Notes: generated from the sequence alone by a model not told the origin. Counted from the first letter of the stretch, positions 3,435-33,138 are shown. The stretch: DNA of 64,000 nucleotides from Alphaproteobacteria bacterium GWF2_58_20 (GCA_001768735.1 MEMB01000007.1:106386-170385), one strand, 5' to 3'. Numbers and translations are program-made.

Positions 3435-4298
3435 ATGAAAAAGCTTATGGCATGCGCATTTATGCTTCTTGGCCTTTCGGGCTGCGTGACGGATGGGGCG
3501 ACACCTGTCGGGCCAAGGCCGGAAACGGTGGAAATGCTGGTACGGCAGGGTGGCGAAGCCCGGTTCCTTGGCCGTGCCCATGGCATGGATGGCTGGCTGG
3601 TCAAGCTGGATGACAATGTGCGCGCCATGTATGTGGCGCCGGATGGCAAAGGTGTCGTGGTGGGCCTCCTGCATGATGGAAATGGTGAAAACCTGACCAT
3701 CCGCCAGATTGAAGCCCTGGCGCTGGCTGACAAGCTTGCCAAGGCGGCTGAAACCGAAACGGCAAGGGGCATTGCCAATGTGCTGCCTGCTGAAAAGGCC
3801 GTGGAAGGTACTGCCGTTGCGGCTCCGGTGGCCGATCCTGCGCAGGCAGCCTGGGAAGCGGCGGAAAATCTCACCTATGTTTCCATCGGGGCTGAGGGTG
3901 CGCCGGTGGTTTATGTGATGTTCGATCCGCGTTGTTCCTTCTGTTCCATGTATCTGGCCGACCTGCTGGAAGGCCCCATCAGTACCCAGAAGCTCAATGT
4001 GCGTCTGCTGCCTGTTTCGGTTCTGGGAGAAGACAGCGTACGCATGGTAGCGTCCATGCTGGGCGCGCCTGTTCCGGCAGAAGCCATTTTGCGGCATGCC
4101 ATTGGGCGGGGTGGGGAGCTTCCTGCACCAACGGAGGAAAACATGGCGGAAGTCCGTCATAATTCAGAGGTTCTTTCGTCTCTGGGGCTGCGCTCGACAC
4201 CACGAACCATCTACCGGACACCCGCAGGGGAATATGGGGTTGTTACCGGTGCGCCAAAGGACATGGCGGCATTTGTCGGGCTTGTCACCGGGCCATGA
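3435..4298 (+). CDS. DsbC/DsbG-like periplasmic thiol:disulfide isomerase lipoprotein; first gene of T4BSS block 1
   Basis: The start at 3435 is preceded by aggggaa. The lipobox is MKKLMACAFMLLGLSGC. A thioredoxin-fold CxxC motif lies in VVYVMFDPRCSFCSMY. The ATGA stop/start overlap with the next gene lies at 4295-4298. Confidence 0.65.
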   Translation: MKKLMACAFMLLGLSGCVTDGATPVGPRPETVEMLVRQGGEARFLGRAHGMDGWLVKLDDNVRAMYVAPDGKGVVVGLLHDGNGENLTIRQIEALALADKLAKAAETETARGIANVLPAEKAVEGTAVAAPVADPAQAAWEAAENLTYVSIGAEGAPVVYVMFDPRCSFCSMYLADLLEGPISTQKLNVRLLPVSVLGEDSVRMVASMLGAPVPAEAILRHAIGRGGELPAPTEENMAEVRHNSEVLSSLGLRSTPRTIYRTPAGEYGVVTGAPKDMAAFVGLVTGP

Positions 4299-5131
4299 CA
4301 GACCTTTTCCCTTCTCCAGAAGGTGGGGCTGAACACCAGCGTCTTGGTGCGCGGGTGGCAGCCTTCATGCGCATGGGCGCTCCCCTTTTGGTGGCTGCGG
4401 CAGATGCCCGGTTCTGGGGGGATGAAAGTCCGGCGCGCAGCCTGCAAGAGGAGGCTGCCCTGTTTTCGCGCATGCTGGAATCGGCAGTGACCATTGGCCG
4501 TGCGGCAGCGGAACGGATTGGTGCCTGGAACCGTCCGGGAGATGATTGGGCGCGCTGGACTCTGGCTTCGGCTGCGGCGGGCCTGGTGGCCGCCCATTAC
4601 AGGGCAACAGGGAAAGTCCTGGTTGCGTCGGAGGCGGGGCCCTATCTGGATGCGGTGGCCGAATCGGCGGGAATTGCCGGAGCGCGCGCGGATGCGCCGC
4701 CGGAACATGGGCCGGGAACCATGGATGTCCCCTTGTGGGTGGATATGGTCAGGGCCATGGGCCCGGTGGTGGCTGCCATTGCCCGCCATGCCTTTGCCCA
4801 GGATGAAGAGGCGTTGGCCGTGCGGGTGCTCACCCATTTGCGCAAGGGCACCGGGCGTGCGGTGGATAGGATTCTTGGGGATGCCCCGGATCCCGGGGGA
4901 CGGGCGACTGCGTTTTCTGCCATGATGACGCTGGCGGGCGAGCTTTATGCCGAGTGTCATTATTCGGAAATGGAACGCATCCTTGCCTTGCCGGAGGATG
5001 AGCGTCAGGCTTATGCCGATGCGGAAGGCGAAGAGGAATCGCTGGTCTCCGTATTCCGGGCTTTTGATGCGCGGCTGTCCATGGTGTTTGTCGTGGCGCA
5101 GGCCGTGCGGCAACAGGGAGGCCTGTCGTGA
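4295..5131 (+). CDS. Hypothetical Ala-rich protein with no recognisable motif, translationally coupled on both sides within the T4BSS operon
   Basis: ATGA overlap upstream (4295-4298) and GTGA overlap downstream (5128-5131). The composition is more protein-like than that of the antisense 300-aa ORF. No family was recognised. Confidence 0.5.
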   Translation: MTDLFPSPEGGAEHQRLGARVAAFMRMGAPLLVAAADARFWGDESPARSLQEEAALFSRMLESAVTIGRAAAERIGAWNRPGDDWARWTLASAAAGLVAAHYRATGKVLVASEAGPYLDAVAESAGIAGARADAPPEHGPGTMDVPLWVDMVRAMGPVVAAIARHAFAQDEEALAVRVLTHLRKGTGRAVDRILGDAPDPGGRATAFSAMMTLAGELYAECHYSEMERILALPEDERQAYADAEGEEESLVSVFRAFDARLSMVFVVAQAVRQQGGLS

Positions 5132-5610
5132 GCATTTCGGCAGCTTCGCAGATTTTTGCCAAATGCCTGCTGGTGGCAGCGCAAACCTATAATGTTCCGC
5201 CTGCCGTCCTGATGGGGATCCATTATGTCGAGGGCGGGAAAGTGGGGATGCAGACCGGGCCGAACGTCAATGGAACCTATGATCTTGGTCCCATGCAGGT
5301 GAACACCATCTGGTTGCCGAAGCTGATGCGGGAGTGGCGGGTTGACCGCAGGACGGCGCATGCCTGGGTGCGGGATGACGTCTGTACCAATGTCGGTGTG
5401 GCGGGCTGGATCCTGCGGCAGAAAATCAACGAAGAGGGGGGATCTCTCGCCCGGGGGATCGCTGCCTATCATTCCAAGACGGCGTGGCGGGGAAAAGCCT
5501 ATTTGAAAAAGGTTCTTTTGTCCATGTCCCGGCATGGCCTCATCCAGTTTGAAACCCGGAAAACGGTTCCGGTTATTCCGGCAAAGCGGCTGGAAGTGAG
5601 TGAAAGGTAA
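5128..5610 (+). CDS. Lytic transglycosylase (SLT domain; VirB1/TrbN-like specialised muramidase)
   Basis: Contains LMGIHYVEGG...GPMQVN...AAYHS, which fits the SLT catalytic Glu context and the downstream GPMQ(V/I)N and AYN/AYH motifs. Uses a GTG start overlapping the upstream stop. Confidence 0.7.
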   Translation: MSISAASQIFAKCLLVAAQTYNVPPAVLMGIHYVEGGKVGMQTGPNVNGTYDLGPMQVNTIWLPKLMREWRVDRRTAHAWVRDDVCTNVGVAGWILRQKINEEGGSLARGIAAYHSKTAWRGKAYLKKVLLSMSRHGLIQFETRKTVPVIPAKRLEVSER

Positions 5611-5711
5611 AAAAGGGGAGGGTTTTCTGTTGCATGTAGCCCCTTAATCTGCATAATATGTCACTGGTTTTTGGGTTTTTTCACGACAGGAACGGACGCA
5701 CAGGACAAACC

Positions 5712-6200
5712 ATGAAGCATCGTTCGCTCGTATATTCCATCGTGCCGCTTGCGGCACTTTTCCTTTCCGGGTGTGAGCTGCCTCCTCCGGTTGTCATCCC
5801 GCAGAATCCGGTGGAATCCCGGCTGGCGGATGCGGCTGGACGTGCGGCGGATGCCCTGCAGAAGCTGGCGGCTGTTGAGCAGGTCCGGAGTGGCGTGGTC
5901 GCAGAAGCGCCGGTGTCCAATGTTCCGCCGGAGCTGATGCAGCAGGTCAGCCTGACCTGGGTCGGCCCGATTGAGCCTGTGGTTCGCCGCATGGCGGAAC
6001 GCATTGGTTATGGGTTCGACGTTCTGGGCGTTGCCCCACCGGTTTCGGTGGTTGTTGATGTCAATGCCGTTCGCCGTCCAGCCATTCAGGTGTTCCGGGA
6101 TATCGGCCTGCAGGCTGGCACCCGGGCAGACCTGACCATTGATGCACAAAATCATGTTGTGGAGTTGCAGTATGCGCCGGTTTCTGGCTCGGACCGCTGA
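5712..6200 (+). CDS. dotD: DotD/TraH-family T4BSS outer-membrane lipoprotein
   Basis: Signal peptide and lipobox MKHRSLVYSIVPLAALFLSGC. The C-terminal N0/secretin-like domain reads LTWVGPIEPVVRRMAERIGYGFDVLG..P.....V.V......AIQVFRDIGLQAG.RADL.ID.....VELQY. It sits immediately upstream of the dotC and dotB homologues. Confidence 0.75.
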   Translation: MKHRSLVYSIVPLAALFLSGCELPPPVVIPQNPVESRLADAAGRAADALQKLAAVEQVRSGVVAEAPVSNVPPELMQQVSLTWVGPIEPVVRRMAERIGYGFDVLGVAPPVSVVVDVNAVRRPAIQVFRDIGLQAGTRADLTIDAQNHVVELQYAPVSGSDR

Positions 6201-6981
6201 GGCTCTGGCCTGCAGCTTCCTGCTGGTTTTGCCAGCCGTGGCTGCACAGCCTGTGCCGCTCTCTTCCCTGCAGGAAATTGAAGCGCCGGCAGGTCTTTCC
6301 GAGGAGCTGTCCGGCCTCCAAATCCGCAATGATGCCATTCGGGAAGCCGCCCTTTCCTACGGTGCCCGTGGCGGTCTTTCCGCCCGCACGTTTGAATTGA
6401 TGCTGGAGGTGGCCAAGTACGATACGGAGATGAGCCGGGTGTTTGATTTCCGGCAGCTGCTGGTTCCGGCTCCATCGGGAATGCTGATTGAACCGCCTGT
6501 CATTGATGAATCCCAGTATGCCCTCAAGGTTGCGCCGGAAGGCCAGGAAGCCGCTGTGGCCGATCGGGTGTTTGCGATTGACAAGCCTGCCCGCATTGTG
6601 TCCGCGCCGCGTGACTGGCGTTCCTATATTGAGCGGGAATGGGACATGGTGGAGCCGCCTGTTGCGGTTCTCTTGCCGCGGACGGACGAGGAACGGGCCA
6701 GTTGGCGCAAGTGGGTTTCTGAGGGCTGGAAAATGGGTTTCCAGCAGGCAGACGAGATTTTCCAGGCTGACCTGGACCGGTTGGTCAAGGATTATACCGG
6801 GATGGTGCGGTATCGCATGCTCTTGGCACAGGGCATGGTTTCCGCGCCTTATGCCATGCATCAGGACCGTGGCGTTACCGGCGGGGGCAAGGAAATGCGT
6901 GTGGGGGATCGCGCCATACGCATTACGGGCCCGTCACAGTTTGAACCGAGGGCGGAACGTTGGACACCGGCGGACAGGTAA
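6172..6981 (+). CDS. dotC: DotC/TraI-family T4BSS outer-membrane-associated protein
   Basis: N-terminal signal sequence. Contains IRNDAIREAALSYGARGGLSART...VFDFRQLL...PPVI, which matches my recollection of the DotC family. Its position between dotD and dotB reproduces the conserved dotD-dotC-dotB order. The start was chosen at MRRFLA and overlaps the dotD end. Confidence 0.7.
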   Translation: MRRFLARTAEALACSFLLVLPAVAAQPVPLSSLQEIEAPAGLSEELSGLQIRNDAIREAALSYGARGGLSARTFELMLEVAKYDTEMSRVFDFRQLLVPAPSGMLIEPPVIDESQYALKVAPEGQEAAVADRVFAIDKPARIVSAPRDWRSYIEREWDMVEPPVAVLLPRTDEERASWRKWVSEGWKMGFQQADEIFQADLDRLVKDYTGMVRYRMLLAQGMVSAPYAMHQDRGVTGGGKEMRVGDRAIRITGPSQFEPRAERWTPADR

Positions 6982-7031
6982 CAGAAACGCCGGATCCCGT
7001 TCCCGGGACATGGCCAGCTGAACCGCCCCGT

Positions 7032-8117
7032 ATGCGGGATGAAGATCTCGACGCCCTGCTTTACTGGTGTGTGAATGAACGGGCCTCGGACATCACCCTG
7101 CAAACCGACCGACCTGTTTATGTTGAAGTGGATGGCAAGCTCCGTCCTGCAACCGTTCGTCCGTTGGACGCGGCCGACCTTTCGGTGATGCTCAACCGTG
7201 TTTATGGTGCGGAAGCGCTGGCCAAGCTGGCTTCTGGTACCGACCTCGACCTTTCCTACGAAATCCGGCTGGACCGTAATACCCGTAGCCGTTTCCGCGT
7301 CAACATCACGGCCATTTTGAGCCGTGGGCGCGATTCGGTGCAGATCACCATGCGTGTCCTGCCCAGCATGCCCCCCAGAATGCAGGATCTTGGCATCGAG
7401 CAGGAAATCATTGACGCGTGGGCGCCGCGGCAAGGCCTTGTCCTGGTTACCGGGCCAACGGGCAGTGGCAAAACCACCCTTCTGGCGGCGGGCTGCCGCA
7501 TGCTGGTGGAGCGCGAACAGGGCTGCGGCAAGATGCTGACCTATGAAGCGCCGATCGAATATGTCTATGATGCGGTTACAGGCCCGCATAGCCTGGTGTC
7601 GCAAAGTGAAATTCCTCGCCATCTTCCCAGTTTTGCGGATGGGGTGCGCAACGCGCTGCGCCGGAAGCCGAACATTATCCTGGTGGGCGAATCGCGTGAC
7701 CGGGAAACCGTGGCGGCAGCCATCGAAGCCGGACAGACCGGGCATCTGGTGTATTCAACCGTTCATACCATCGGGGTGGCGGCCACCATGCGCCGAATGG
7801 TGTCGGTGTTTGAGCCGGACGAGCGTACCGAACGCGCCTTTGCCCTGTTGGAAACAATGCGGCTCATTGTCACCCAGGCCCTGGTACCAAAAGTGGGTGG
7901 CGGCCGCGTTGGTGTGCGAGAATGGATGGCGTTTGATGATTCCATCCGTGATCGGCTGTTTGACATTCCGATTGAACATTGGACCACGGAAATCCAGCGC
8001 CTTGTGCCTGACCGTGGCCGGAGCATGGCAGAATCGGCCAAGCGCCTGTTTGAGGCCGGGTTGATTGACAAACGCTGGTTCTTCCTGCTGTCGCAGGAAA
8101 CGGCAAGGGGGGGCTGA
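7032..8117 (+). CDS. dotB: DotB/TraJ T4BSS ATPase (PilT/VirB11-like secretion NTPase)
   Basis: Walker A in LVLVTGPTGSGKTTLL. Contains ILVGE.RD (Asp box) and TGHLV.ST.HT (His box). The N-terminus reads ASDITLQ...PVYVEVDG. The ATG at 7032 is preferred over the in-frame TTG at 6960, which overlaps dotC. Confidence 0.85.
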   Translation: MRDEDLDALLYWCVNERASDITLQTDRPVYVEVDGKLRPATVRPLDAADLSVMLNRVYGAEALAKLASGTDLDLSYEIRLDRNTRSRFRVNITAILSRGRDSVQITMRVLPSMPPRMQDLGIEQEIIDAWAPRQGLVLVTGPTGSGKTTLLAAGCRMLVEREQGCGKMLTYEAPIEYVYDAVTGPHSLVSQSEIPRHLPSFADGVRNALRRKPNIILVGESRDRETVAAAIEAGQTGHLVYSTVHTIGVAATMRRMVSVFEPDERTERAFALLETMRLIVTQALVPKVGGGRVGVREWMAFDDSIRDRLFDIPIEHWTTEIQRLVPDRGRSMAESAKRLFEAGLIDKRWFFLLSQETARGG

Positions 8118-8120: not shown

Positions 8121-8396
8121 ATGTCGGCAGACCTTCATTGGCGCAACACCATGAAACCCGCCCGGTTTTTTGCCCTGGATGCGCGTGCGGCGGCACCGTT
8201 TTTTGTGGTTTTGCTGCATGCCCGCAACTGGACATTTGCCGTGGCGATCATTGTCATCATCGTGTTTGTGGTGGCCGAGCGTCGGGGCCTGACTTTTGAA
8301 GCGGCCATCCGGGCCTTGCGTAGCTGGATTGTGGGGAACCGTCGTCCAGCTGTTATTTTTACAGATAAACGGCGCATGACGGAGTATCTTTCCTGA
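8121..8396 (+). CDS. icmT: IcmT/TraK small T4BSS inner-membrane protein
   Basis: 91 aa. HWRNTMKPARFFALDARAAAPFFVVLLHARNWTFAVAI......V.ERRGLTF closely follows the IcmT pattern (HWRDS...PRFF.LDARAAFP...FLLH.R.WT...). It lies directly after dotB. Confidence 0.85.
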   Translation: MSADLHWRNTMKPARFFALDARAAAPFFVVLLHARNWTFAVAIIVIIVFVVAERRGLTFEAAIRALRSWIVGNRRPAVIFTDKRRMTEYLS

Positions 8397-8520
8397 TGTG
8401 GAAGAAACAGAAAGCCGTTGCATTGAGCGTGTTGAAAACGTATAACATGCAGTGAAGGTTGTGTGGCTGCATTCATTGTGTAGCTGCAGGGGAGTATCAA
8501 TCATGCAGGAAGTCAGGTTC

Positions 8521-9612
8521 ATGAAGCATCAAGCAGTTTTTTCCTTGGCCACCGCCCTGGCATTGGTCATGGCAGCCGGTACCGCCCAGGCGGGGTTCCA
8601 ATGGGTTCCCCAGCCGGAAGTTGCAAAACCCGCCATGATGAATGCGCCGGTGGTGGAAGTTATCCCTGCACAGGACATGGCGCCTGTGGTTGAGATTGAT
8701 GTTCCCGCCATTCGGCCTGCTCCGGCCATGGTGCCGGCAGCTGCGCCCATGGCGGAGGAAGACCTGCCGCCGTGGCTGGCCAAGGAATCCCCCGCTCTTC
8801 CCGTGGTTGTGGAAGAGGAGATGACTGTTCCGGAAGTGAAGGGTGTGATTGAAGCCCCCGTCATGGCTCCGGTGGTTGCTGAAGAACCGGCCCTTGAAGG
8901 GTTTGGCAAGAACATGCCGCTGGTTATCGCCATGCGGCAGATCGTGCCAACGGATTACCAGTTTGCTTTTGGATCTGGCGTCAACATGGGGGCGGCCATT
9001 ACCTGGGAGGGTGGAAAGCCCTGGAATGTTGTCCTGAAATCGGTGCTGGAGCCCATGGGGCTTGGCCTGCGCGTTGTGGACAAGGTTGTCTATGTAGAAA
9101 AAATGGAAAACGGCAGGCCGGTTGAGGGCATGTTTGCAGCAGCCGTGAAGGCGCGTGTTTCCCAGGAACCACCTGTTATGGTGGAAAAGCCGTTGATTGA
9201 GGCTCTTCCTGCCCAGCCTGTGGTGGAAGTTGTTTCCGCCATGGGAGAGCCGATGGAAGAGGATGAATTGATGCCTGCGCTTGGAGAGGCTCCGGAATTG
9301 AGCTTCCTCCCCCTGCCTGTGGTGCGTGAAGTTCAGGAAGAAATTCGCGTACAGCCCAAATGGGTGATCGAACCCGGACGAACCTTGCGTGAGGTTCTGG
9401 AAGACTGGGGCCAGCAGGCAGATTGGGTTGTGGTCTGGCGCAGCGAACGGGATTACCTGATTGAATCCGGGGCCATCTTTGAGGGGGCTTTTGCGCAGGT
9501 CGCTGAAGAAGTCCTGCAGGCTTTTGCCCATGCCGAGCCGCCGGTGCGTGCCACGTTCTATCGCAACAAGACCTTGGTGATTGATGCCGAGGCGATGAGC
9601 GACCTGAACTGA
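8521..9612 (+). CDS. Secreted TcpQ/PilL-like protein: two TcpQ-type beta-domains joined by Pro/Ala/Val/Glu-rich linkers
   Basis: Signal peptide MKHQAVFSLATALALVMAAGTAQA. The central domain reads NMPLVIAMRQIVPTDYQF...ITWEGGKPWNVVLKSVL. The C-terminal domain reads KWVIEPGRTLREVLEDWGQQADWVVVWRSERDYLIESGAIFEGAFAQVAEEVL, typical of toxin-coregulated-pilus Q / IncI PilL-like proteins. Confidence 0.6.
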   Translation: MKHQAVFSLATALALVMAAGTAQAGFQWVPQPEVAKPAMMNAPVVEVIPAQDMAPVVEIDVPAIRPAPAMVPAAAPMAEEDLPPWLAKESPALPVVVEEEMTVPEVKGVIEAPVMAPVVAEEPALEGFGKNMPLVIAMRQIVPTDYQFAFGSGVNMGAAITWEGGKPWNVVLKSVLEPMGLGLRVVDKVVYVEKMENGRPVEGMFAAAVKARVSQEPPVMVEKPLIEALPAQPVVEVVSAMGEPMEEDELMPALGEAPELSFLPLPVVREVQEEIRVQPKWVIEPGRTLREVLEDWGQQADWVVVWRSERDYLIESGAIFEGAFAQVAEEVLQAFAHAEPPVRATFYRNKTLVIDAEAMSDLN

Positions 9613-9662: not shown

Positions 9663-9846
9663 TGTTTGGAAAGCCGTGCATGGGCCTATGCACAAGGGAA
9701 TTTGGTAAGTTTTTGTAAAGAAGTTGGTGTAAACTGGAAGGCGTTGAGAAGGGTTCATTTTTTTTGAATGGAGTTGTTGAACAGCTTTTGAATTGTGTGC
9801 GTACCGGGAATTTTCCTCCTCCTGTTTGGTTGAAGGGATGTGCTGC

Positions 9847-10344
9847 ATGGCTCGGACTGAACACCATATCAAAGCCCATTTACGGCTTATACCCGTCAAG
9901 GCATGTTTGTATGTCGTGCCACCCAAGGCCGAACGCCAACGCATAGCTAAACAGTTTGGCAAGATCCGAAAACAGTTTGCCAAGTTTCTGGCGGAAAATC
10001 ATTTGGAGGATTTGCGTCGTCTGGGCATTTCCGAGGCCGAAATTGATATCATGCGGGAAACTGGACGGGGGCCAGAAGGATATACCGTCCACCATAAGCT
10101 TCCCCGCCATGGTGGCGGTACAAACGACTTTTCCAATCTTGTCCTGATTTCCAGAGCGATCCATTCCGATATCCATTATGAAATGGATCGTCAGCTTTTT
10201 GGATCAAAAAAACCGATTTCCCAGATGAAAACCGGGGATAGTTGCTGGATTGATATTCCTACGCCGGAAGGCATGATTTATATTCCGCCGGTTTTGCCCG
10301 CCCTGGATAACATCCCGGATTCCCTGCGTTTGAAGCTGCGTTGA
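9847..10344 (+). CDS. Free-standing HNH/EndoVII-superfamily nuclease-like protein (paralogue 1)
   Basis: Beta-beta-alpha-Me signature EGYTVHHKLPRHGGGTNDFSNLVLISRAIHSDIH. The gene is visibly more A/T-rich than its surroundings. The start at MARTEHH gives a size matching paralogue 2, though the longer in-frame start at 9793 remains possible. Confidence 0.65.
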   Translation: MARTEHHIKAHLRLIPVKACLYVVPPKAERQRIAKQFGKIRKQFAKFLAENHLEDLRRLGISEAEIDIMRETGRGPEGYTVHHKLPRHGGGTNDFSNLVLISRAIHSDIHYEMDRQLFGSKKPISQMKTGDSCWIDIPTPEGMIYIPPVLPALDNIPDSLRLKLR

Positions 10345-10534
10345 ATTTTTTGCATGGGCCCATGCGCGGATTTTTTTTAAAAGCGCTGGGCTTTCACGAG
10401 AGGCATGTTATGATGCCACCGAAACAAGAAAAATTCATGGAGTGAGAAGCGACAGGACAACCGTTTGTCCGGAGTGACGTGCCTTTCAAGAATCACTAGG
10501 AATATCAACCTCTAGCGATTGGAAGGAAAACAGG

Positions 10535-11029
10535 ATGGCTGGGAAGGGCATAGACGTCATCACGACGTTTTGTTGCATGCCCAAGATTAACGTCCGATAT
10601 ACCGTTGCTTCCAAAGAGCAGCGTGATCAACGTCGTAATTATTACCATGATGTTGTTCGCAAGCAGTTTGCCAGTCACCTTGCCACACATCATGCTGAAA
10701 AACTCCGCATCCTGGGGATTCCCGAAGAGCAGATCACGATCATGCGTGACCGGGGCGAAGGGCCGGAAGGCTATAATATCCACCACAAGATTCCGCTGCA
10801 TGCCGGTGGGACGAATGATTTTTCCAACCTGATCCTGATGCGGGCGGATTTGCATTGTCATCTGCACCGGTTTGTGGATGCGAAGATCCTGGGGCTCAAG
10901 GTTGGCAAGAGCCGGGATGTTGTCCTGCCTTTTCTGGAAGGGGAGGTCTGTTTTATGCAGCCGTGGAAACAGCCTGGCTGGAATCCCAACGCGCCTCTTC
11001 CTGTGCCGCCTTCCTCCTGTTGGGGGTGA
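10535..11029 (+). CDS. Free-standing HNH/EndoVII-superfamily nuclease-like protein (paralogue 2)
   Basis: Contains EGYNIHHKIPLHAGGTNDFSNLILMRADLHCHLH. It shares the upstream helix region (..RKQFA..LA.HH.E.LR.LGI.E..I.IMR..G.GPEGY) with paralogue 1. Confidence 0.65.
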   Translation: MAGKGIDVITTFCCMPKINVRYTVASKEQRDQRRNYYHDVVRKQFASHLATHHAEKLRILGIPEEQITIMRDRGEGPEGYNIHHKIPLHAGGTNDFSNLILMRADLHCHLHRFVDAKILGLKVGKSRDVVLPFLEGEVCFMQPWKQPGWNPNAPLPVPPSSCWG

Positions 11030-11035
11030 GGCAGC

Positions 11036-11293
11036 ATGGTTGTGAATGTTTCGGTGGAGACACTTTCATGGGCGGATGTTCGGGGTATCGCCCGGGCCTT
11101 GCATAAGGCTCATCCCATGGTTGACCAGTCACTTTTGACCCCCGAAGATGTGCGGCGCATGGTGGTGGAGCTTCCCGGGTTTTCCGACCTGCCGCAGCCG
11201 GAAAATGAAAACATGCTGGATACTGTTGTTTATGCATGGCTTCGGATCGAGAAAGAAGAATGGGAAAACGAATTGGTGGAAGATAATGCATGA
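11036..11293 (+). CDS. IscX (YfhJ)-like small acidic protein
   Basis: 85 aa. LSWADVRGIARALHKAHPMVDQSLLTPEDVRRMVVELPGFSDLPQPENENMLDTVVYAWL aligns position-for-position with my recollection of E. coli IscX ([60 protein letters not shown]). Its stop overlaps the start of the next gene by 8 nt. Confidence 0.6.
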   Translation: MVVNVSVETLSWADVRGIARALHKAHPMVDQSLLTPEDVRRMVVELPGFSDLPQPENENMLDTVVYAWLRIEKEEWENELVEDNA

Positions 11294-12896: not shown

Positions 12897-13012
12897 CGGA
12901 GCCTTGCATTTTTTGCAGGGGTGGTGAATGAAAAGAACATGGCTGTTTGCGGGTTTTTCATGCGAAAATGTTCGTATGGAAGTTCCCTTTTTGTCCGGGA
13001 AAGGCAAAAAAC

Positions 13013-14479: not shown

Positions 14480-14596
14480 CCCATGCGCCCCGCGCATGGC
14501 TCCCTTGCGAAATCGGAATACCTCCTGCCCGCCATTATCTGTGATACTGGTTCCGTCAGCATATTTCGACACAAACCCGATGTGAAAGGACATGAC

Positions 14597-22858: not shown

Positions 22859-23155
22859 GGCAACCCTCCGGAGTAAGTGTATGGATGCAACATTGAAACA
22901 TGGGCATCTTAGCTTCCCTTTAAGGGAAAATCAATGGTTCATCTTGAGCTGCGTCCTCATGGTTCCCTCCCGGAATGTCTTGGCGGGCCTTGTGAGTTCC
23001 ATGTTGACCGGCCATGCCCCATGAGGTAAAACAGAAGGGATCCGGAATCTGTCCCTTTTTTAGGCGGGTGCTGGTTTCATGGTTTTGTGCGGAATGTCCG
23101 GGAGGAATGCCGGGTGGTTGAACAGTCTGAAAAAGTGCAGGAAAAATCAGGGGAG

Positions 23156-25577: not shown

Positions 25578-26863
25578 TTGATCAGATGCCAGAGATGGGA
25601 GGCCCGGAGGGCGGTCCCGAGGATTTTGAGGGAATCGCCCCCCCGGTGTCGCAGGGGTTTGTTGCCCGCCAGAATCTTTCCGAAGCCTGGAAAACGCGTC
25701 CGATGTTCCGGCTTTTGGTCATCGTGATGCCGGTTGTCGCTGTGGCGGCCATCGCCATGGGGATGTTCGGCGGCAATAACGATGTGTCTGCACCTTTGCC
25801 AACACAAGGCTTGCGGACATCGGATATTTCGCTCAATCCGGCCATTCCGACAACGCCTGAGGTGAAGCAATCGGTTGAGCAATATGACGCCCAGAAAATC
25901 GACCAGGCCCTGGCAACAGGAACCAGTGCGATTGCCACGCCGATGCGTTCAGACCAGATGGGAAATTCCTCAATCATGGTTGAGGATTCTGCCGCTGATC
26001 CGTTGGCGGAATGGCGCGGAGCTTCGGACATGTCGGTTGATTACATGACCCAGACCATGATTGAAGACCAGCGTTCTGCCCGTCCACAGCAGGTGGATAC
26101 CGAGGCGCAACAGCGCCGCCAGCAGGAAAATGACCGTTTGTCGCAGGCCATGCAGGCACAGATGAATGCTCTGCTGTCGGCCTGGGTGCCCAAGGGCGCC
26201 AAGGTGACAATGGTTGAGGACATGAAAAAGGCCGAGGATGCTGCGGCCGCTGCGGCAGCCGCACAGCAGCAGGCGTCTGCGGCTCCGGCCACCATTGATT
26301 CCAGCAAGCTCAACACGCTGGCCATGGCGGGGGATGTGGTTTATGCGCAGATCCTGACCCAAGCCAATTCCGATGTTCCGGGTCCTGTTCTTGCCCATAT
26401 CCTGACGGGAAAGTTCAAAGGCGCACGGGTTCTCGGCAATTTTGAATACACGGAGGAATACCTTGTGGTGCGCTTTACCACAGCCGTCCTTGGAAACCGG
26501 GAATACAAGATCGAGGCGGTGGCCCTGGATCCCGACACGACACTGACGGGTGTTGCGACGGATGTGGACAATCATTACTTCAAGCGGATTGTCCTGCCGG
26601 CCGCAGGCGCTTTCATCAGCGGGTTTGCCAGTGCACGCGCACAGACGACAACCACCAGCACCACGACATCTGGTGGCCAGGTTGTGCAGGATACAGCCAA
26701 AGCCACGGATGAAGAACAGGTTTACAAGGGAATTGAAAGTGCCGCCGACAAGGTCCAGGAAGTTCTGGACAAGGCGGGAGATGTGCGTCCCACGGTTGTC
26801 CTGGCGGCCAATACGCCGGTGGGCATCCTGTTCATGCAGTCTGTCCGGGAGATCATGAAATGA
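25574..26863 (+). CDS. dotG: DotG/IcmE (TraO)-family T4BSS core protein with a VirB10/TrbI-like C-terminal domain
   Basis: N-terminal TM segment FRLLVIVMPVVAVAAIAMGMF. C-terminal domain GDVVYAQILTQANSDVPGPVLAHILTGKFKGARVLGNF......LVVRFT.......EYKIEAVALDPDT...GVATDVDNHYF.R. It has ATGA overlaps on both sides. Confidence 0.8.
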   Translation: MIDQMPEMGGPEGGPEDFEGIAPPVSQGFVARQNLSEAWKTRPMFRLLVIVMPVVAVAAIAMGMFGGNNDVSAPLPTQGLRTSDISLNPAIPTTPEVKQSVEQYDAQKIDQALATGTSAIATPMRSDQMGNSSIMVEDSAADPLAEWRGASDMSVDYMTQTMIEDQRSARPQQVDTEAQQRRQQENDRLSQAMQAQMNALLSAWVPKGAKVTMVEDMKKAEDAAAAAAAAQQQASAAPATIDSSKLNTLAMAGDVVYAQILTQANSDVPGPVLAHILTGKFKGARVLGNFEYTEEYLVVRFTTAVLGNREYKIEAVALDPDTTLTGVATDVDNHYFKRIVLPAAGAFISGFASARAQTTTTSTTTSGGQVVQDTAKATDEEQVYKGIESAADKVQEVLDKAGDVRPTVVLAANTPVGILFMQSVREIMK

Positions 26864-27888
26864 TCAAGGAAACGGAATACACAGGGGGCGCGCCCCTTTC
26901 TGATGACATGGAAGACGATGGGATGGCCGGAGAGGCCCGTCCTGTGCTTTCAGATGAAACCCTTGATTCCCTGCCGGAAGAAGGCGAAGGGCTTCAGGTT
27001 CCGCCTCCGGATGAGGACGAGGAAGATTTTGGAACAGCGGAGCCGGTGGTGAAATCCAGCCGCATGCTGCCCCTTATGGTTGGGGGTGGTTTCCTGGTTT
27101 TTGCCATGGCAATGGCCTATTTCCAGTTCCGTCCCAAAGCGGTTGAGGAAACAGCTTTTGTCCCGATGGACATGTCGGCCGAGATGCCGATGGCCCTGCC
27201 GGAAGTGGTGGTGCCCGGATCCATGGAGAATGATTTCCCGAAACCGTTTGAGGTTTCGCAGATGGGGATGGGAGATGCCGGGATCCCGGCGATTTTGTCC
27301 GAGCCGCAGGGTCTGGACGCAAAAGCGCCTGTTGTGGCCATGGCCGCATTTCCTGCTCCGGTGGACAATGTAAAGCCCATGACCATTGATCAGACGCCTG
27401 TCAGGGAAGAGGAATCCCTGTCGGACGCCGTGGAAGGCAAGGTTGTTGTTCTGGAAGCGCAGATAAAGGCGCTTGAAGCCCGTCTGACAGAGATGTCCGC
27501 TTTGCAGGCGCAGATTCGCAATCTTGAAAGGAAGCTGATGGACATGTCGGTTTCTGAAACCGCACCCGCGCCCATGGTTTCGTCCATGCCGGTTGCCAAG
27601 GTTGTGGAAACGCCGAAGGCGGAACCTGCCAAGGCCATGCCCGTTGCAAAAGCGGAGCCTGCGGTAAAGCCCGTGTCCGCCCCTCCGGCAAAAAAAGTGG
27701 TGAAAGCCCCGAAATGGGAACTGCGCTCGGTTGCAGGGGATGCTGCCTGGGTTGGCGAGGCCGGGAAAGCGGATGTCAAGCGCGTAATCGTTGGTGACAC
27801 CCTTGAAGGTCTTGGGAAAATCACGGCCATTCACAAGGTGGACGGGGGTTGGGTGGTTGAAGGCAGCAGGGGAACTCTTAAACCGTAA
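26860..27888 (+). CDS. dotF: DotF/IcmG (TraP)-like T4BSS protein
   Basis: Acidic N-terminus, a single TM segment (MLPLMVGGGFLVFAMAMAYF) and a coiled-coil (LEAQIKALEARLTEMSALQAQIRNLERKL). The C-terminal beta-domain reads WELRSV.GDAAWV......DVKRVIVGDTLEGLGKITAI. It occupies the conserved position after dotG. Confidence 0.6.
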   Translation: MIKETEYTGGAPLSDDMEDDGMAGEARPVLSDETLDSLPEEGEGLQVPPPDEDEEDFGTAEPVVKSSRMLPLMVGGGFLVFAMAMAYFQFRPKAVEETAFVPMDMSAEMPMALPEVVVPGSMENDFPKPFEVSQMGMGDAGIPAILSEPQGLDAKAPVVAMAAFPAPVDNVKPMTIDQTPVREEESLSDAVEGKVVVLEAQIKALEARLTEMSALQAQIRNLERKLMDMSVSETAPAPMVSSMPVAKVVETPKAEPAKAMPVAKAEPAVKPVSAPPAKKVVKAPKWELRSVAGDAAWVGEAGKADVKRVIVGDTLEGLGKITAIHKVDGGWVVEGSRGTLKP

Positions 27889-28053
27889 GGGTTTCAGGAT
27901 GGAGGATCATCCAAAACGCCTTTTTTACTTGACGTTTTTGCTTTGGTTGCACATATTCGCGCCAAAGGAATGTTTCGCTTGGAAAGATTGAACCAGAATA
28001 TGCCGGGGAAGGGACATCATCACATTCTTGCGCAGCCTGAGATCGGGCTGCGC

Positions 28054-28956
28054 ATGTTTTCGTGCGCCTTTTTCCTGTTGGCTGTCCTTCTGGCGCTGCC
28101 ATCCCCGGCCTATGCGCTGGATGTTGGGGGCATCATTTCCAATGCTGGAAACCTTGCAATTTCTTCGCCTGTTCGTATTTTCATTCACGTTGTCGCTTAT
28201 GTCGTTGGGGCCTCCCTCATTTTTCTTGGCATGTTCAAGCTGGTCAAATATGTGGATGACCCGGCGCGCAACCATCCGGTTGAGCCATGGATGTACCTCA
28301 TTTCCGGTACGCTGCTCATTTTCTTTGTCTGGTTTGTTTACCAGCGGTTGGTTCCCACCCTGTTTTCGGGGGATCTTAAAGGGGTTGGTTCTGGCGGCGG
28401 CATGGCCGGTGGATCGGGCGAGGGGCTGGATGCCCGTTTCATCAGTTTTGTGTCGAATGTTGATGGTCCCCTGCGGGCGGCCATTACAGCCATTTGCTGG
28501 CTGATTGGCGTGATCATGGCGTTTAATGGCGTGGTGCGCCTCACCAAGGTTTCGCAGAAAGGGCCCAAGGGCCCTGCGGGTGCTGGTACGCTGATGACCT
28601 TCATTGTGGCTGCCATCATGCTCAGCCTCGGCAACATGATGGAAGCCGTGAGCTTCAGCGTTCTCGGCGGCGTGGATTTCAGCACCAGTTATGAGCTGGT
28701 CGCCATTCCCAAGGCGCTTGGAAAGCATGGCGAAGCGGCGAAGAATGCCTTCCAGGCCGCGCTGGTTTTTGTCCAGCTCATCGGCTGGATTGCTTTTGCG
28801 CGCGGATGGCTGCTCATCCGCGACATTGTGGACGGAACATCGAAATCCTCGATGTTGTCGGGCTTTACCCATGTCATTGGGGGTGCGCTGGCGGCCAATA
28901 TTGGCAGCGTGCTCAAGGCCCTTCAGGCAACATTGGGCATCACCATCATCTCGTAA
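28054..28956 (+). CDS. DotE/IcmC (TraQ)-like polytopic inner-membrane protein, enlarged (about 300 aa)
   Basis: Signal-like N-terminus MFSCAFFLLAVLLALPSPAYA. Three successive TM-hairpin modules each resemble IcmD. It occupies the position between dotF and icmD. The start is uncertain (in-frame starts at 27943 and 28000). Confidence 0.5.
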   Translation: MFSCAFFLLAVLLALPSPAYALDVGGIISNAGNLAISSPVRIFIHVVAYVVGASLIFLGMFKLVKYVDDPARNHPVEPWMYLISGTLLIFFVWFVYQRLVPTLFSGDLKGVGSGGGMAGGSGEGLDARFISFVSNVDGPLRAAITAICWLIGVIMAFNGVVRLTKVSQKGPKGPAGAGTLMTFIVAAIMLSLGNMMEAVSFSVLGGVDFSTSYELVAIPKALGKHGEAAKNAFQAALVFVQLIGWIAFARGWLLIRDIVDGTSKSSMLSGFTHVIGGALAANIGSVLKALQATLGITIIS

Positions 28957-28994
28957 AAAAGATGATGTTTTTTATCTCAAGGTAACCAGAATTA

Positions 28995-29375
28995 ATGGAG
29001 TTGAACATGAACAAGCTGAATGAAAAGTTTTACGGCATCCTGGCGGCCGGTTCCGCCACGGTTTTCACCAGCAAGTCGGCTTCCGCCGCCACGATTGGTG
29101 ACATCATTGAAAGCCTGACGGACAGCTTCCGTCCGGCGGCCACCCTCATTTCCGTGGTCTGCTATCTGGGCGGCGCCGCGCTGGTGGCGCAGGGCCTGCT
29201 GAAGCTGAAGAACCACATTGATCAGCCGGAGAAGGCGCCGCTGAAGGATGCTCTTGGCCGCCTCATCGTGGGTGCGGGCCTCATTGCCATCCCCTTCATC
29301 GTCGAGGCTGTGCTGGAAAGCATGGGCGGTACTCAGGGCGGTAACGTCACCGGTGGCGATGGTTTCGGCCTTTAA
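28995..29375 (+). CDS. icmD: IcmD/DotP (TraR)-like small T4BSS membrane protein
   Basis: Signal/TM segment ...GILAAGSATVFTSKSASA, then ATLISVVCYLGGAALVAQGLLKLKNH...LIVGAGLIAIPFIV. Size and position are as expected. Confidence 0.65.
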   Translation: MELNMNKLNEKFYGILAAGSATVFTSKSASAATIGDIIESLTDSFRPAATLISVVCYLGGAALVAQGLLKLKNHIDQPEKAPLKDALGRLIVGAGLIAIPFIVEAVLESMGGTQGGNVTGGDGFGL

Positions 29376-29394
29376 TCAAAGAAGCTGATACCTG

Positions 29395-30093
29395 ATGTCT
29401 CTCTTTCCGGTTGTTTTGGGTGTGCGCCGTGAGGTGAAGGGAAAGCCCGGTGAAGCTTTCCCCGCCTCTGGCCTTGACGCCTCCAGTCCCGAGCTGCGTG
29501 CCCGGGTGCTGGAGCGTGATGGAAACACATGCCAGTTTTGCGGATTTACGTCGAAAAAATACCAGAATCTGGTATTCCGCAATGGCAATGCCCTGGATAC
29601 CCGGATGGAAAATCTCGCGACGGCCTGCATTTTCTGTCACCAGTGTTTCTTTCTGGAAACGGTGGCGGGCATGCGGTCGGGCGTTCTTGTCTGGTTGCCG
29701 GAAATGGATGCGGCGGCGCTTCACCACGTTTGCCGCGCCATTTATATTGCCCGGATCAGCCAGGGGCCGGTGGCCGATGCCGCCCGCATTGCCCTTGATG
29801 CGCTGATTTCGCGGCGTGATGAGGCGCGCAAGCGCCTTGGCACGGACGATCCGGCCATTCTGGCTGGTGTCCTGCAGGATTTCCTGGAGGACAAGGATTA
29901 TGCGATGCGCAGTCGCAAGCTGGACGGTATCCGGCTTTTGCCGCTGGATCGGCGCATCATCCGTGACGGGGACATGGAGTTCAACCAGTTTCCCCAAATT
30001 CTTGCTTACTGGCGTTCCAAGGATGGGCCATTTGGCGGCGTGCCGCCGGCCGGATGGGAACAGCTTTTTGATCAGGTTTCATCCCTGGCCTGA
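29395..30093 (+). CDS. icmJ: IcmJ/DotN (TraT)-like zinc-binding T4BSS protein
   Basis: Four-Cys motif RVLERDGNTCQFCGF......LVFRNGNALDTRMENLATACIFCHQC. It lies immediately upstream of dotO, as in Dot/Icm and IncI loci. Confidence 0.65.
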   Translation: MSLFPVVLGVRREVKGKPGEAFPASGLDASSPELRARVLERDGNTCQFCGFTSKKYQNLVFRNGNALDTRMENLATACIFCHQCFFLETVAGMRSGVLVWLPEMDAAALHHVCRAIYIARISQGPVADAARIALDALISRRDEARKRLGTDDPAILAGVLQDFLEDKDYAMRSRKLDGIRLLPLDRRIIRDGDMEFNQFPQILAYWRSKDGPFGGVPPAGWEQLFDQVSSLA

Positions 30094-30153
30094 TTGCTGG
30101 GGAGAAGGCCCGCATGTGCGGTAGGTTGAAGGAAAAAGAGGGAGAGGATTTTT

Positions 30154-33138
30154 ATGGCCAGGTTGATTGATGATATCCTCGGGTCCTTTTTTGCTGCCAT
30201 GCATCAGCCGGTCGAATCCTATGTCCGTCTTGAAACGGCGGATGACAGCCAGACCCTTGTTGCGGGAGATGGCTCGCTCCTGACCATTCTCAAGATCCAT
30301 GGGGCCCGCCAGATCATTGGCGACGAGGAATATCGCTTTATTGTGGAGCAGGCTTCGGTGAAGCTGGGGGCACGGTTTGACCGCCCCGGCCATGCCATGC
30401 AGGTGTATTTCAGCCGCGATCCTGAACGCATGGTCAGGGAAATCGGCGACATGGTGCGGCCCAGCGAACTGACGTCGCGGGCCATTGGGCTTGATCTTGC
30501 CGACCTCTTCGAGGAGCGCCGTCGCAACCTGTCGCGCTACCTCGCGTGGGAGGATATTTATTTCGTCCTGTGGACCCGCCCCGTGGCCATGACGGATGTG
30601 GAACGCAAGAATGAGGAACAGAAGCGCCGTGCCCGTCCATGGGTGGTGGCGCCCACCGCCCAGTACCCCTTTGCGGCGCTTGAATCGCTGCGGAGCCGGC
30701 ACGGCAGTTATGTCTCCTCCATTGCGAGCTCTCTTGAGGAAATCGGTATCCAGTCCAGTGTTGTTGAAGTGCATGAGGCCCTTTCTGCCGTCCGCACCAG
30801 CATCTATCCCAATCTGGCCAATGATCGCTGGCGTCCCTGCCTGCCGGGCGATCCGATACCTGTGCGCGCGCTACAGAGCAGAAGTGACCTGTCCGATGTG
30901 CTGTGGCCTGCCCTGCGCCGCCAGTTGTGTGTGGGGGATGCCGAGGTCAAGACCCAGAATTCCGTGCGAATCGGCAACCAGATCTGGTCGGGCGTGGACA
31001 TGACTCTGGCTCCCATGGAACCCAGCCCGTTTCCGGTGTTTCTGGGCCGGTTGGTGGAAGCCGGAATTCCGTTCCGCATTTCCTTCCTGATTGAGGCGGG
31101 GGGCGCTTCGGCTCTCGGGTTCAAGAAGGCTGTTGCCTCCATTTTGGGCTTCAGCAATGACGTGAACAAGCAGATCAAGGATTCGCTGGAAGGGATTGAA
31201 GCCCTGGCCCGTGATGAAGCCGTGGTCAAGTTGCGGATTTCCATGGCGACATGGGCGCCTCCGGACCAGCCAAAACTTCTGGAGGAACGCACATCCATGC
31301 TGGTGCAGGCCTTTGAAGGCTGGGGCTATTGCCAGGTATCACAGATTGCGGGCGACCCGCTGGATTGCGTGATGTCTTCGGCGCTCGGCATTGCCTGTGC
31401 CTCCACGGCACCTGCGGCCATTGCGCCTTTTTACGATGTTCTCAAGCTGTTGCCGTGGCAGCGGGCATCCAGCCCGTTTGACAAGGGATCGGTTCTCCTG
31501 CGCTCGCCGGACGGACGTGTGTGGCCCTATCAAACCGGGACGAATCTTACCACCACCTGGTTCGACCTGATTTTCGCCCAGCCGGGTGCAGGCAAGTCGG
31601 TGCTGATGAATGCGCTGAACCTTGGCACCTGCCTTACGCCAGGGCTTTCCCAGTTGCCTTATGTGGCCATTATCGACATTGGTCCGTCATCTGCGGGGCT
31701 TGTGTCCCTTCTCAAGGATGCCATGCCGCCGGAACGCCGCCATGAAGTGGCGCATTACCGTCTGCGCATGACGCCGGAATATGCCATCAACCCGTTTGAT
31801 ACCCAGCTGGGGTCGCGCTATCCACTGCCCGATGAGCGTTCCTATCTTGTGGAACTCCTCACCCTGTTGTGTACGCCGCCAGGACAGCCGGTGCCTTATG
31901 ATGGCATTCCCCAGCTCTGCGGGCTGGTGGTGGATGAAATGTTCCGCTGGCGGGATGATGTGACCGCAAATGCCGAGGCGCATCCCTACCTGCAGCGGAT
32001 TGATGAAGAAGTGGACAAGGCCATTTCCGACCGCAATATTCACCTGCCGACGGAAGCGACATGGTGGGATGTGGTGGATGGCCTGTTTGAGGCCGGGGAT
32101 ACGCATGCGGCCATGCTGGCGCAGCGTTATGCGGTTCCGACATTGACCGATGCCGTGACGGCTTCGCGTCGGCCGCAGATCCGGGCGCTTCTGGAAGAGA
32201 CCAAGATCAGCGCCGGTGCGGAAAGCGTCATTGGCGCGTTTGAGCGCATGATTGCCTCCAGCATTCGTGAGTTTGCGCTGCTGGCCTCCGTCACCAAGTT
32301 TGATATTGGTGATGCCCGCGTGTGTGCGCTCGACCTTGGCGAAGTGGCTCCGCAGGGGGATGAAACATCGGATCGCCAGACGGCCATCCTCTACATGCTG
32401 GCGCGCCATGCGCTGGTGCGGCATTGGTGGCTGGGCGAAGATGCCCTCAAAAACCTCAATCCGAAATACCGCGAACATCATGAACTCCGCCTGCGATCAA
32501 TCCGCGAATCGCCCAAGCGCCTGTGTTATGATGAGTTCCATCGCACCAGCAAATCGCGCTCGGTGCGCGCCCAGGTGGTGCGTGACGTGCGCGAAGGCCG
32601 CAAGTGGGGCGTGCAAATTGTTCTTGCCTCGCAGCTGCTGGAAGATTTTGACGACAACATGATTGACCTTGCCACAGGCGTGTGGATTCTGGGTGCGGCC
32701 ATTTCCGAGCGTTCGGTGGATCAGGCCGCCAAGCGGTTTGGCCTGTCCGACACGGCACGCTGGTACATGCGTTATCGCCTTACCGGGCCGCGTTCCAGCG
32801 GGGCGCCTGCGCTCATGGTGCTGGGCACCAATGAGGGGCGTTATGAGCAGTTCCTCATCAACACCCTTGGCCCCATCGAGCTGTGGGCGCTTTCGACATC
32901 CTCCGAGGATGTTTCCATCCGGACACGCGTTTACCATCGTTTGGGCGCCAAGCTGGGGCGTGAAATCCTGGCCACCAACTATCCGGGGGGCAGTGCGCGC
33001 AGTGAAATTCGCCGTCGCGTCACCCAGCTTTCTGAAAAGGGTGAAGTGGAAAGCGCCGCCACGTCGGTGGTGATCGAGGATATTGTGAACGAGCTGGTGC
33101 AAGCGGCGGTGGCCGCGCAGAGATTGCAGTTGTCCTGA
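30154..33138 (+). CDS. dotO: DotO/IcmB (TraU) T4BSS VirB4-class ATPase
   Basis: 994 aa. Walker A in IFAQPGAGKSVLMNAL. Walker B-like region in LCYDEFHRTS...GRKWGVQIVLASQ. Size and position are typical of DotO. Confidence 0.85.
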   Translation: MARLIDDILGSFFAAMHQPVESYVRLETADDSQTLVAGDGSLLTILKIHGARQIIGDEEYRFIVEQASVKLGARFDRPGHAMQVYFSRDPERMVREIGDMVRPSELTSRAIGLDLADLFEERRRNLSRYLAWEDIYFVLWTRPVAMTDVERKNEEQKRRARPWVVAPTAQYPFAALESLRSRHGSYVSSIASSLEEIGIQSSVVEVHEALSAVRTSIYPNLANDRWRPCLPGDPIPVRALQSRSDLSDVLWPALRRQLCVGDAEVKTQNSVRIGNQIWSGVDMTLAPMEPSPFPVFLGRLVEAGIPFRISFLIEAGGASALGFKKAVASILGFSNDVNKQIKDSLEGIEALARDEAVVKLRISMATWAPPDQPKLLEERTSMLVQAFEGWGYCQVSQIAGDPLDCVMSSALGIACASTAPAAIAPFYDVLKLLPWQRASSPFDKGSVLLRSPDGRVWPYQTGTNLTTTWFDLIFAQPGAGKSVLMNALNLGTCLTPGLSQLPYVAIIDIGPSSAGLVSLLKDAMPPERRHEVAHYRLRMTPEYAINPFDTQLGSRYPLPDERSYLVELLTLLCTPPGQPVPYDGIPQLCGLVVDEMFRWRDDVTANAEAHPYLQRIDEEVDKAISDRNIHLPTEATWWDVVDGLFEAGDTHAAMLAQRYAVPTLTDAVTASRRPQIRALLEETKISAGAESVIGAFERMIASSIREFALLASVTKFDIGDARVCALDLGEVAPQGDETSDRQTAILYMLARHALVRHWWLGEDALKNLNPKYREHHELRLRSIRESPKRLCYDEFHRTSKSRSVRAQVVRDVREGRKWGVQIVLASQLLEDFDDNMIDLATGVWILGAAISERSVDQAAKRFGLSDTARWYMRYRLTGPRSSGAPALMVLGTNEGRYEQFLINTLGPIELWALSTSSEDVSIRTRVYHRLGAKLGREILATNYPGGSARSEIRRRVTQLSEKGEVESAATSVVIEDIVNELVQAAVAAQRLQLS

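Follow-up and report, generated by a model that had tools for sequence, protein, structure and literature searches.

Does a set of Dot/Icm-like genes on an alphaproteobacterial chromosome belong to a conjugation apparatus or to a machine that moves proteins, and if the latter, into which kind of cell? The question is raised by a 64,000-nucleotide stretch of Alphaproteobacteria bacterium GWF2_58_20 (MEMB01000007.1:106386-170385, or C7:106386-170385 in our contig numbering; hereafter the window, with positions counted from its first letter), where type IVB secretion system (T4BSS) genes lie in two blocks at 3435-9612 and 23087-33138. The genome is 1.71 Mb in 7 contigs and is 94.6% complete. We consider it probable that these genes encode one functional, chromosomally fixed protein-translocating system of the Dot/Icm class (mating-pair formation class I, MPF-I) whose recipient is most likely eukaryotic.

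Block 1, read entirely on the plus strand, has the gene order proposed in a first-pass annotation made from the sequence alone, and searches of Pfam, NCBIfam and PDB upheld that order. It opens with a DsbC/TrbB-like thioredoxin-fold lipoprotein (3435..4298; frame open from 3363, probable start 3435, MKKLMACAFMLLGLSGC), recognized by a lipobox, a CSFC motif at residue 191 of the 311-amino-acid (aa) frame counted from 3363, and a weak Pfam match to Thioredoxin_2 (23 bits, under the cut-off). Homologs with 24-29% identity occupy the same operon in two relatives, G150 and G170. The next gene (4295..5131) encodes a conserved 278-aa protein with no assigned function and no match in Pfam or NCBIfam, predicted to be all-helical without a transmembrane segment or signal peptide. 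Its AlphaFold2 model, built from an alignment of 3 sequences, reached a pLDDT of 64 and returned only meaningless matches in a fold search, but the gene is always adjacent to that for SLT, and its homologs adjoin SLT and T4BSS genes in relatives G087, G150 and G170. The lytic transglycosylase that follows (5128..5610) carries an SLT domain (PF01464, 23.6 bits, above the cut-off) and is 51-57% identical to transglycosylases that sit beside T4BSS genes in relatives.

The remainder of block 1 is more readily identified. The DotD/TraH lipoprotein (5658..6200; PF16816, 107 bits; lipobox LFLSGC) is followed by the DotC/TraI lipoprotein (6139..6981, start uncertain; PF16932, 260 bits; 32% identity to IncI1 TraI) and by the DotB/TraJ ATPase (6960..8117; T2SSE, 127 bits; Walker A motif GPTGSGKT). 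In PDB, DotB scored 356 bits against L. pneumophila DotB 6GEB and 206 bits against a second DotB entry, 6GEF, compared with 192 bits for IncI1 TraJ. IcmT/TraK (8121..8396) matched NF038220 with 96 bits, where the cut-off is 40. The last gene (8452..9612) encodes an exported protein with a TcpQ-like C-terminal domain (PF10671, 71.5 bits) that also matched PDB 9u5s chain R, annotated 'Lipoprotein', at E 3e-9; a TcpQ-domain gene follows icmT in G087 and G170 as well.

Block 2 is likewise on the plus strand, and here the proposed order stood on profiles or homologs for the two icmL genes, dotH, dotG, icmJ and dotO. The first DotI/IcmL paralog, in the DotJ/IcmM position (23087..23797, probable start 23156), and the second (23782..24477) matched PF11393 with 122 and 125 bits; the second scored 62 bits against L. 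pneumophila DotI vs. 29 against R64 TraM. DotH/IcmK (24474..25577) matched PF12293 with 253 bits and L. pneumophila DotH in PDB with 179, compared with 104 for the IncI part. DotG/IcmE/TraO (25574..26863) is a short form of 429 aa (TrbI, 53 bits) that matched NF033900 with 164 bits, in its C-terminal part only, vs. 78 bits for TraO_IncI1. IcmJ/DotN (29395..30093) has two CxxC motifs and matched NF038221 with 108 bits (cut-off 100). The block ends with IcmB/DotO/TraU, a VirB4-class ATPase of 994 aa (30154..33138) that had no family match in Pfam or NCBIfam and none in PDB. We identified it by its homologs, which number more than 1,300 and are called IcmB wherever they carry a name (NCBI, JGI), and by 27% identity to IncI1 TraU over 94% of its length; its Walker A sequence P-G-x-G-K-S is invariant.

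For the three genes in between, the DotF, DotE-like and IcmD assignments rest mainly on position and membrane topology. The DotF/TraP-position protein (26860..27888) was placed by its position and bitopic topology: an acidic N-terminus is followed by a single transmembrane segment, then by a linker rich in Pro and Ala, and finally by a C-terminal beta domain that is conserved in 22 related loci. Sequence searches of Pfam, NCBIfam and PDB found nothing for it, and a word-based homolog search gave 3 matches. Foldseek returned no significant match for the C-terminal domain (AlphaFold2 pLDDT 82), the top TM-scores being 0.54 (PilP) and 0.49 (GspC HR domain) with E above 3. The DotE/IcmC/TraQ-like membrane protein (27943..28956) has six transmembrane segments, a DUF308 match at residues 69-128 and an NF033883 match at residues 168-333 (51.5 bits, below the cut-off of 80); it looks like a doubled module. 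The IcmD/DotP/TraR-position protein (28995..29375) is a small membrane protein with two transmembrane segments and a weak DUF6750 match. Same-position homologs among 80 related loci numbered 18 for dotF, 52 for dotE-like and 58 for icmD, counts that include only loci whose short flanks allow them to be seen.

All five of the gene overlaps noted at first pass (ATGA or GTGA at 4295, 5128, 24474, 25574 and 26860) are present and are 4 nt long, and both blocks are collinear with IncI1, as had been claimed. The gap between the blocks was underestimated at about 11 kb; it measures 13.5 kb (9613-23086). None of the T4BSS genes has an internal stop in its frame, and DotB, DotL and DotO each have a Walker A motif.

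Several parts that the window seemed to lack are encoded elsewhere in the genome. Contig C2 has two tandem DotA/TraY genes, flanked by mutS and an opp-type ABC transporter; they matched TIGR04346 with 308 and 259 bits, both above the cut-off. On contig C7, 47.5 kb upstream of the window start and beside gyrB, are dotM (C7:57724-58857; NF033890, 164 bits, below the 230-bit cut-off; PDB IcmP, 95 bits) and dotL (C7:55235-57727; L006:11235-13727, minus strand). DotL matched the TrbC model with 372 bits and L. pneumophila DotL with 441 bits over residues 2-593. Its last 241 residues, acidic (21% D+E) and Ala/Pro-rich, could not be aligned to the Legionella tail that binds IcmSW/LvgA. The first-pass annotation was thus right about the absence of DotL, DotM and DotA from the window but not from the genome; IcmS, IcmQ and DotU, which it also missed, remained undetected by genome-wide profile searches. 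With DotB, DotC, DotD, DotH, DotG, DotI, DotO, DotL, DotA and IcmT, the full set of parts that marks the MPF-I class was found.

The identity and intactness of the genes, the inventory across the genome, the missing MOBP, MOBF and MOBQ relaxases, the conservation and the tree position are observations; assembly, protein export and the kind of recipient cell are what we infer from them, as is the following build of the machine. The two blocks would supply two of the three ATPases and a core that spans the envelope. DotC, DotD, DotH, DotG and the DotF-position protein would form an outer-membrane core complex, while the two DotI/IcmL proteins, the DotE-like and IcmD-position proteins and IcmT, joined by the two DotA copies from the other contig, would make up the inner-membrane part. 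DotB and DotO are the predicted energy supply, and DotL-DotM with DotN/IcmJ would act as a coupling complex that recruits substrates. The DsbC-like lipoprotein and the SLT transglycosylase, co-transcribed with the rest, are probable helpers in assembling the machine across the periplasm and the cell wall.

Would such a machine carry DNA? We searched the genome for relaxases of the MOBP, MOBF and MOBQ families (PF03432, PF08751, PF03389) and found none, as the first-pass annotation had claimed for the window; MOBH, MOBC, MOBV, MOBT and MOBB were not searched. The MOBP profile performed as expected in a positive control: in 3 of 3 enterobacterial IncI-like genomes it picked up a relaxase no more than 15 kb from the TraU homolog. 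No NikB-type MOBP relaxase was found near the tra genes (no oriT search was made). Among 21 related genomes, 16 lacked a MOBP relaxase, and in the other 5 it was on a contig other than that of dotO. Judged by the MOBP, MOBF and MOBQ profiles, the system would count as an MPF-I machine without a conjugative relaxase, which in the terms of TXSScan is a protein-secreting T4BSS (pT4SSi).

An IncI-like integrative conjugative element or integrated plasmid, with relaxase, oriT and thin-pilus genes outside the window, would account for the collinearity with IncI1 and for the DsbC-like and SLT genes, which recall IncI TrbB and the pilT-type transglycosylase. It could also claim a type IV pilus-like cluster that adjoins dotML, divergent from dotM (C7:59185-68795; L006:15185-19465 and L008:472-5795). 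That cluster comprises a secretin, an AraC regulator, a prepilin peptidase, two N-methyl pilin-like proteins and a 798-aa protein without assignment; no ATPase or platform gene was recognized in the part scanned. The first-pass annotation had seen no type IVb pilus genes in the window; this cluster lies outside it, and its secretin is MshL-like (197 bits) rather than PilN-like (57 bits). The relaxase searches and their MOBP control also speak against a conjugative element, as do the distant IncI1 and IncL/M proteins (20-32% identical, in a separate clade) and a GC content of 0.55-0.61 in the T4BSS blocks vs. 0.56-0.60 in the contigs. Moreover, the T4BSS genes occupy at least four chromosomal sites amid housekeeping genes (gyrB, mutS, the opp-type transporter, flgKL), in an arrangement that depends on lineage, and an IncI element would be expected as one contiguous mobile unit with a patchy distribution, which is not what we observed.

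The distribution of the system bears on the same point. When 401 genomes were sampled evenly across the class, 29 proved to have a DotO homolog, 22 of which (the present genome included) were of a type 60-69% identical. The other 21 fall under 14 family codes and range in size from 1.1 to 4.1 Mb; in this data set the present genome is alone in its order-level group. Among complete relatives, distances of tens to hundreds of kb separate dotB, dotH, dotO, dotL and dotA, and the arrangement depends on the family. For example, dotO, dotM and dotL are together in G150 with dotB 885 kb away, dotO is followed by the 278-aa gene and SLT in G087, and the icmL-to-dotO run is contiguous in G184 and G224 as it is here. 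The icmJ-dotO adjacency is kept in 63 of 80 related loci, and dotA occurs in 2-3 copies in the present genome and its relatives.

DotO is as conserved across families as GyrB (60-69% vs. 60-68% identity). Because GyrB identity is saturated at 60-68% across the class, we compared trees instead of identities. In the 21 genomes with both proteins, 9 of 18 splits were common to the DotO and GyrB trees, two of them above family level. Patristic distances were correlated (Mantel r 0.59, reached by 0 of 5000 permutations), and this held with one genome per family (r 0.48, reached by 6 of 5000 permutations). DotO thus tracks GyrB, which points to an old, vertically inherited, non-conjugative system. 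Since no MOBP, MOBF or MOBQ relaxase is present, the genes are scattered and inheritance is vertical, translocation of protein rather than DNA is most likely, in agreement with the first-pass preference for an effector-translocating T4BSS. We therefore rejected the IncI-like element, whose probability we regard as very close to nil, on the MOBP, MOBF and MOBQ searches, the scattered loci, the tracking of GyrB by DotO and the distance of the IncI proteins.

Three other genomes carry a different type of DotO (G143, G292 and G158; loci L025, L158 and L027), 49-50% identical and placed elsewhere in the DotO tree. They group near the subclade of the present genome in the GyrB tree with weak support, and G143 has four MOBP matches. 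Related organisms may thus harbor another T4BSS lineage, a mobile one, marked by this DotO type.

The fragmentation of the system and the several Legionella accessory proteins that were not detected might suggest an inactive relic, or else a machine that serves another purpose, for example uptake or release of DNA, or adhesion alone. All genes are intact, however, and DotO being as conserved as GyrB implies strong purifying selection on a working machine, so we think this very unlikely.

What, then, is the target cell? On contig C2 alone, we counted at least 66 Ank_2 matches in at least 39 distinct frames, several of them in tandem arrays (for example, 819888-825320, 252430-256514 and 645272-646381). 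Ranked by first-look ankyrin candidates, the present genome is about 7th-8th of the 401 sampled. This many ankyrin-repeat frames in 1.7 Mb suggests that the recipient is most likely a eukaryotic cell, namely a protist.

Several observations weigh against a Dot/Icm-class system directed at eukaryotes. Most other T4BSS-positive relatives have only 0-12 ankyrin candidates (one has 59), so the case for a eukaryotic recipient is specific to the present genome or lineage. The ATP/ADP translocase had no match, in a search without a positive control since no control genome matched either. IcmS (PF12608) was undetected here and in 4 Micavibrio-like relatives, and IcmQ and DotU (PF09475, PF09850) were undetected both in the present genome and in the 5 relatives searched; all three were found in each of the 4 comparison genomes, which were taken from outside the class as carriers of IcmS, IcmQ and DotU to stand in for Legionellales. 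Because these proteins are undetectable, substrate recruitment cannot work exactly as in Legionella. Five DotM arginines are needed for binding of Glu-rich signals (PMC5802825). Only two of the five are kept here (R217 and R314, but not R196, R197 or R315), and no Glu-rich C-terminus was found among the neighboring genes and candidate cargo. Basic Pro/Lys-rich tails do occur on the first two RNase J-like proteins encoded between the blocks and on the open reading frames (ORFs) at 33321-34331 (minus strand), 34349-35416 and 35350-35946. The motif was not clearly enriched in a crude test with noisy gene calls (29 of 1359 ORFs genome-wide vs. 2 of 40 ankyrin ORFs). For the frame at 33321-34331, Pfam returned no family at E <= 0.001.

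The two remaining points against a eukaryotic recipient, the habits of cultured Micavibrio and a nuclease cassette between the blocks, also speak for the same T4BSS being aimed at bacterial prey or competitors, as the weapon with which an epibiotic, Micavibrio-like predator attacks on contact. Metagenome-assembled genomes labelled Micavibrio are the nearest named relatives, and cultured Micavibrio are obligate predators of bacteria (PMC3189940). The cassette (9793..16515, plus strand) consists of two HNH proteins, three RNase J/beta-CASP paralogs in tandem and a 132-aa ORF, and its nucleases would be candidate cargo. The genome is flagellated and piliated, and the scarcity of ankyrin genes in most T4BSS-positive relatives would fit a bacterial target.

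Several points speak against prey. The ankyrin-repeat frames are a hallmark of bacteria that manipulate eukaryotic cells. The cassette has no counterpart beside T4BSS genes in the complete relatives G087, G150 and G170 and is lower in GC (0.52 at 9-11 kb, 0.53-0.58 over its remainder), so it looks like a later arrival, and we read it as a lineage-specific insertion outside the machine. M. aeruginosavorus ARL-13, a sequenced predator, reportedly lacks type III and type IV systems alike (PMC3189940), so predation in that genus does not need a type IV system. Finally, we know of no T4BSS that has been shown to kill bacteria. On balance we judge a bacterial target unlikely, though it is the alternative to which we give real weight for the clade as a whole. 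A related idea joins the two targets: a clade-wide predation organelle that injects nucleases and other toxins into prey and was retargeted to eukaryotes in a few lineages, including the ankyrin-rich one. We consider it unlikely. If the predation reading were true, this would be the first Dot/Icm-class system used between bacteria.

The neighborhood of the two blocks otherwise consists of ordinary chromosomal genes, as the first-pass annotation had maintained: rnpB (2290-2685, minus strand) lies upstream, and pntB (38781-40175) and pntA (40594-41799) lie downstream. No tRNA genes were found in the window. Between the blocks are flgL (16587-17582) and flgK (17587-19179), both on the minus strand. 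The flgK-flgL pair lies near T4BSS loci repeatedly, being found upstream of dotO in G170 (L115:16968-19338) and near dotML in G087 (L118:1420-3899) as well as here. Upstream of icmL, on the plus strand, are unassigned candidate ORFs at 19209-20639 and 22551-23024 and two overlapping frames at 20344-22209 and 21380-22876. Those at 19209-20639 and 21380-22876 matched nothing in Pfam or NCBIfam, the frame at 20344-22209 matched nothing in NCBIfam, and ORFs from 19209 to 23024 have no counterpart in the T4BSS loci of relatives.

Three further genes were noted in passing. At 23-2128 (plus strand), shortly upstream of rnpB and block 1, lies a gene for a protein of 701 aa in which Lcl C-terminal (DUF1566-type) domains are repeated. 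Between the T4BSS region and pntAB is a gene (36618-38774, minus strand) for a 7TMR-DISM membrane sensor to which an adenylate/guanylate cyclase domain is fused. On contig C2, 6 kb downstream of the dotA pair, is a gene whose 1052-aa product combines Sel1 repeats with an FGE-sulfatase domain (C2:165101-168259, minus strand; L004:10101-13259).

How common are systems of this kind? In reviews, Dot/Icm systems that translocate effectors count as a hallmark of Legionellales together with a few neighboring gammaproteobacteria (PMC11338181, PMC8896642), and the first-pass annotation called such systems uncommon outside Legionellales. That description does not extend to the uncultured Micavibrio-like radiation of alphaproteobacteria, where the T4BSS is common and essentially undescribed. 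A scan of species-representative genomes gave at least 458 relatives, of which the best 80 are all 60-65% identical. Those 80 come from metagenome-assembled genomes recorded as Micavibrio sp., Alphaproteobacteria bacterium, Pseudobdellovibrionaceae bacterium, Bdellovibrionales bacterium or Rickettsiales bacterium; NCBI files Micavibrio under Pseudobdellovibrionaceae/Bdellovibrionales. In the literature on Micavibrio or Micavibrionales and T4BSS, we found no mention beyond one sentence in Needham et al. 2022, which reports pT4SSi in 'seven Micavibrionales' among marine genomes (PMC9418006).

In this account, a large and uncultured radiation of alphaproteobacteria inherits a Dot/Icm-class machine vertically, as a chromosomal trait, without detectable IcmS, IcmQ or DotU. 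Nature would then offer two independent cases in which an MPF-I machine has shed the genes for conjugation, allowing a comparison of which parts protein export truly needs. The order-level lineage with the ankyrin expansion is a probable undescribed associate of eukaryotic microbes. A testable question is what Micavibrio-like bacteria inject and which cells receive it.

Compared with the Legionella Dot/Icm system, the likeness is extensive. DotC, DotD, DotH, DotG, two DotI-family proteins, IcmT, DotB, DotO, DotL, DotM, DotN and DotA are common to both, as are the gene orders dotD-C-B and icmL-K-E-G-C-D-J-B. Both systems are chromosomal, spread over several loci and without a relaxase (here judged by the MOBP, MOBF and MOBQ profiles only). 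By their scores, DotB, DotH, DotI and DotG are closer to the Legionella parts than to the IncI parts. Apart from the undetected IcmS, IcmQ and DotU, the differences lie in DotG, of which only the C-terminal 260 residues match the 1008-position DotG model; in the acidic C-terminal 241 residues of DotL, in place of an alignable adaptor-binding tail; in 2-3 copies of dotA; and in the additional conserved genes for the DsbC-like lipoprotein, the SLT transglycosylase, the 278-aa protein and the TcpQ-domain protein.

DotO also differs in its placement. We built a DotO tree of 52 rows with a quick IQ-TREE run (LG+C20), a short search with an assumed root on the IncI/IncL/M clade. The four IcmS-positive sequences formed one clade (support 99). 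The window's DotO fell in a Micavibrio-like clade (100) nested in a separate clade of 22 rows (SH-aLRT 100), which also takes in the M. extorquens type and other alphaproteobacterial systems. In this quick tree, with its assumed root, DotO appears to branch outside both the IcmS-positive (Legionellales-type) and the IncI clades. A strictly Legionellales-type system would combine the DotM and DotN partners, which are present here, with IcmS, IcmQ and DotU, which were not detected, and with a DotO inside the IcmS-positive clade, where the window's DotO did not fall.

The Tra/Trb system of IncI1 (R64-type) is a homologous machine, collinear over traH-I-J-K and traM-N-O-P-Q-R-T-U. Both systems have a DsbC-like gene (TrbB in IncI1) and a transglycosylase, and the DotG found here is of TraO-like length. 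Identity is nonetheless only 20-32% (27-28% for DotO vs. IncI1 and IncL/M), and no NikB relaxase, NikA/oriT context (no search for oriT was made) or exclusion genes were recognized here, while the secretin of the pilus-like cluster scores higher as MshL than as the PilN of a PilL-V thin-pilus operon. In addition, TrbA had no tblastn match in the present genome, whereas the DotM model did match, and the system is not on a mobile element.

The nearest named relative by DotO (45%) and DotL (39%) is the megaplasmid of Methylorubrum extorquens AM1, which shares the 22-row DotO clade and has been typed as MPF_I and non-mobilizable. A plasmid carries that system, in a free-living organism with a large genome, whereas the Micavibrio-like systems form a separate clade (100) and are chromosomal and scattered in genomes of 1.1-4.1 Mb. 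As far as sequence comparison goes, the system looks complete and belongs to a known kind, of which it is a distinct and widespread variant poor in accessory proteins.

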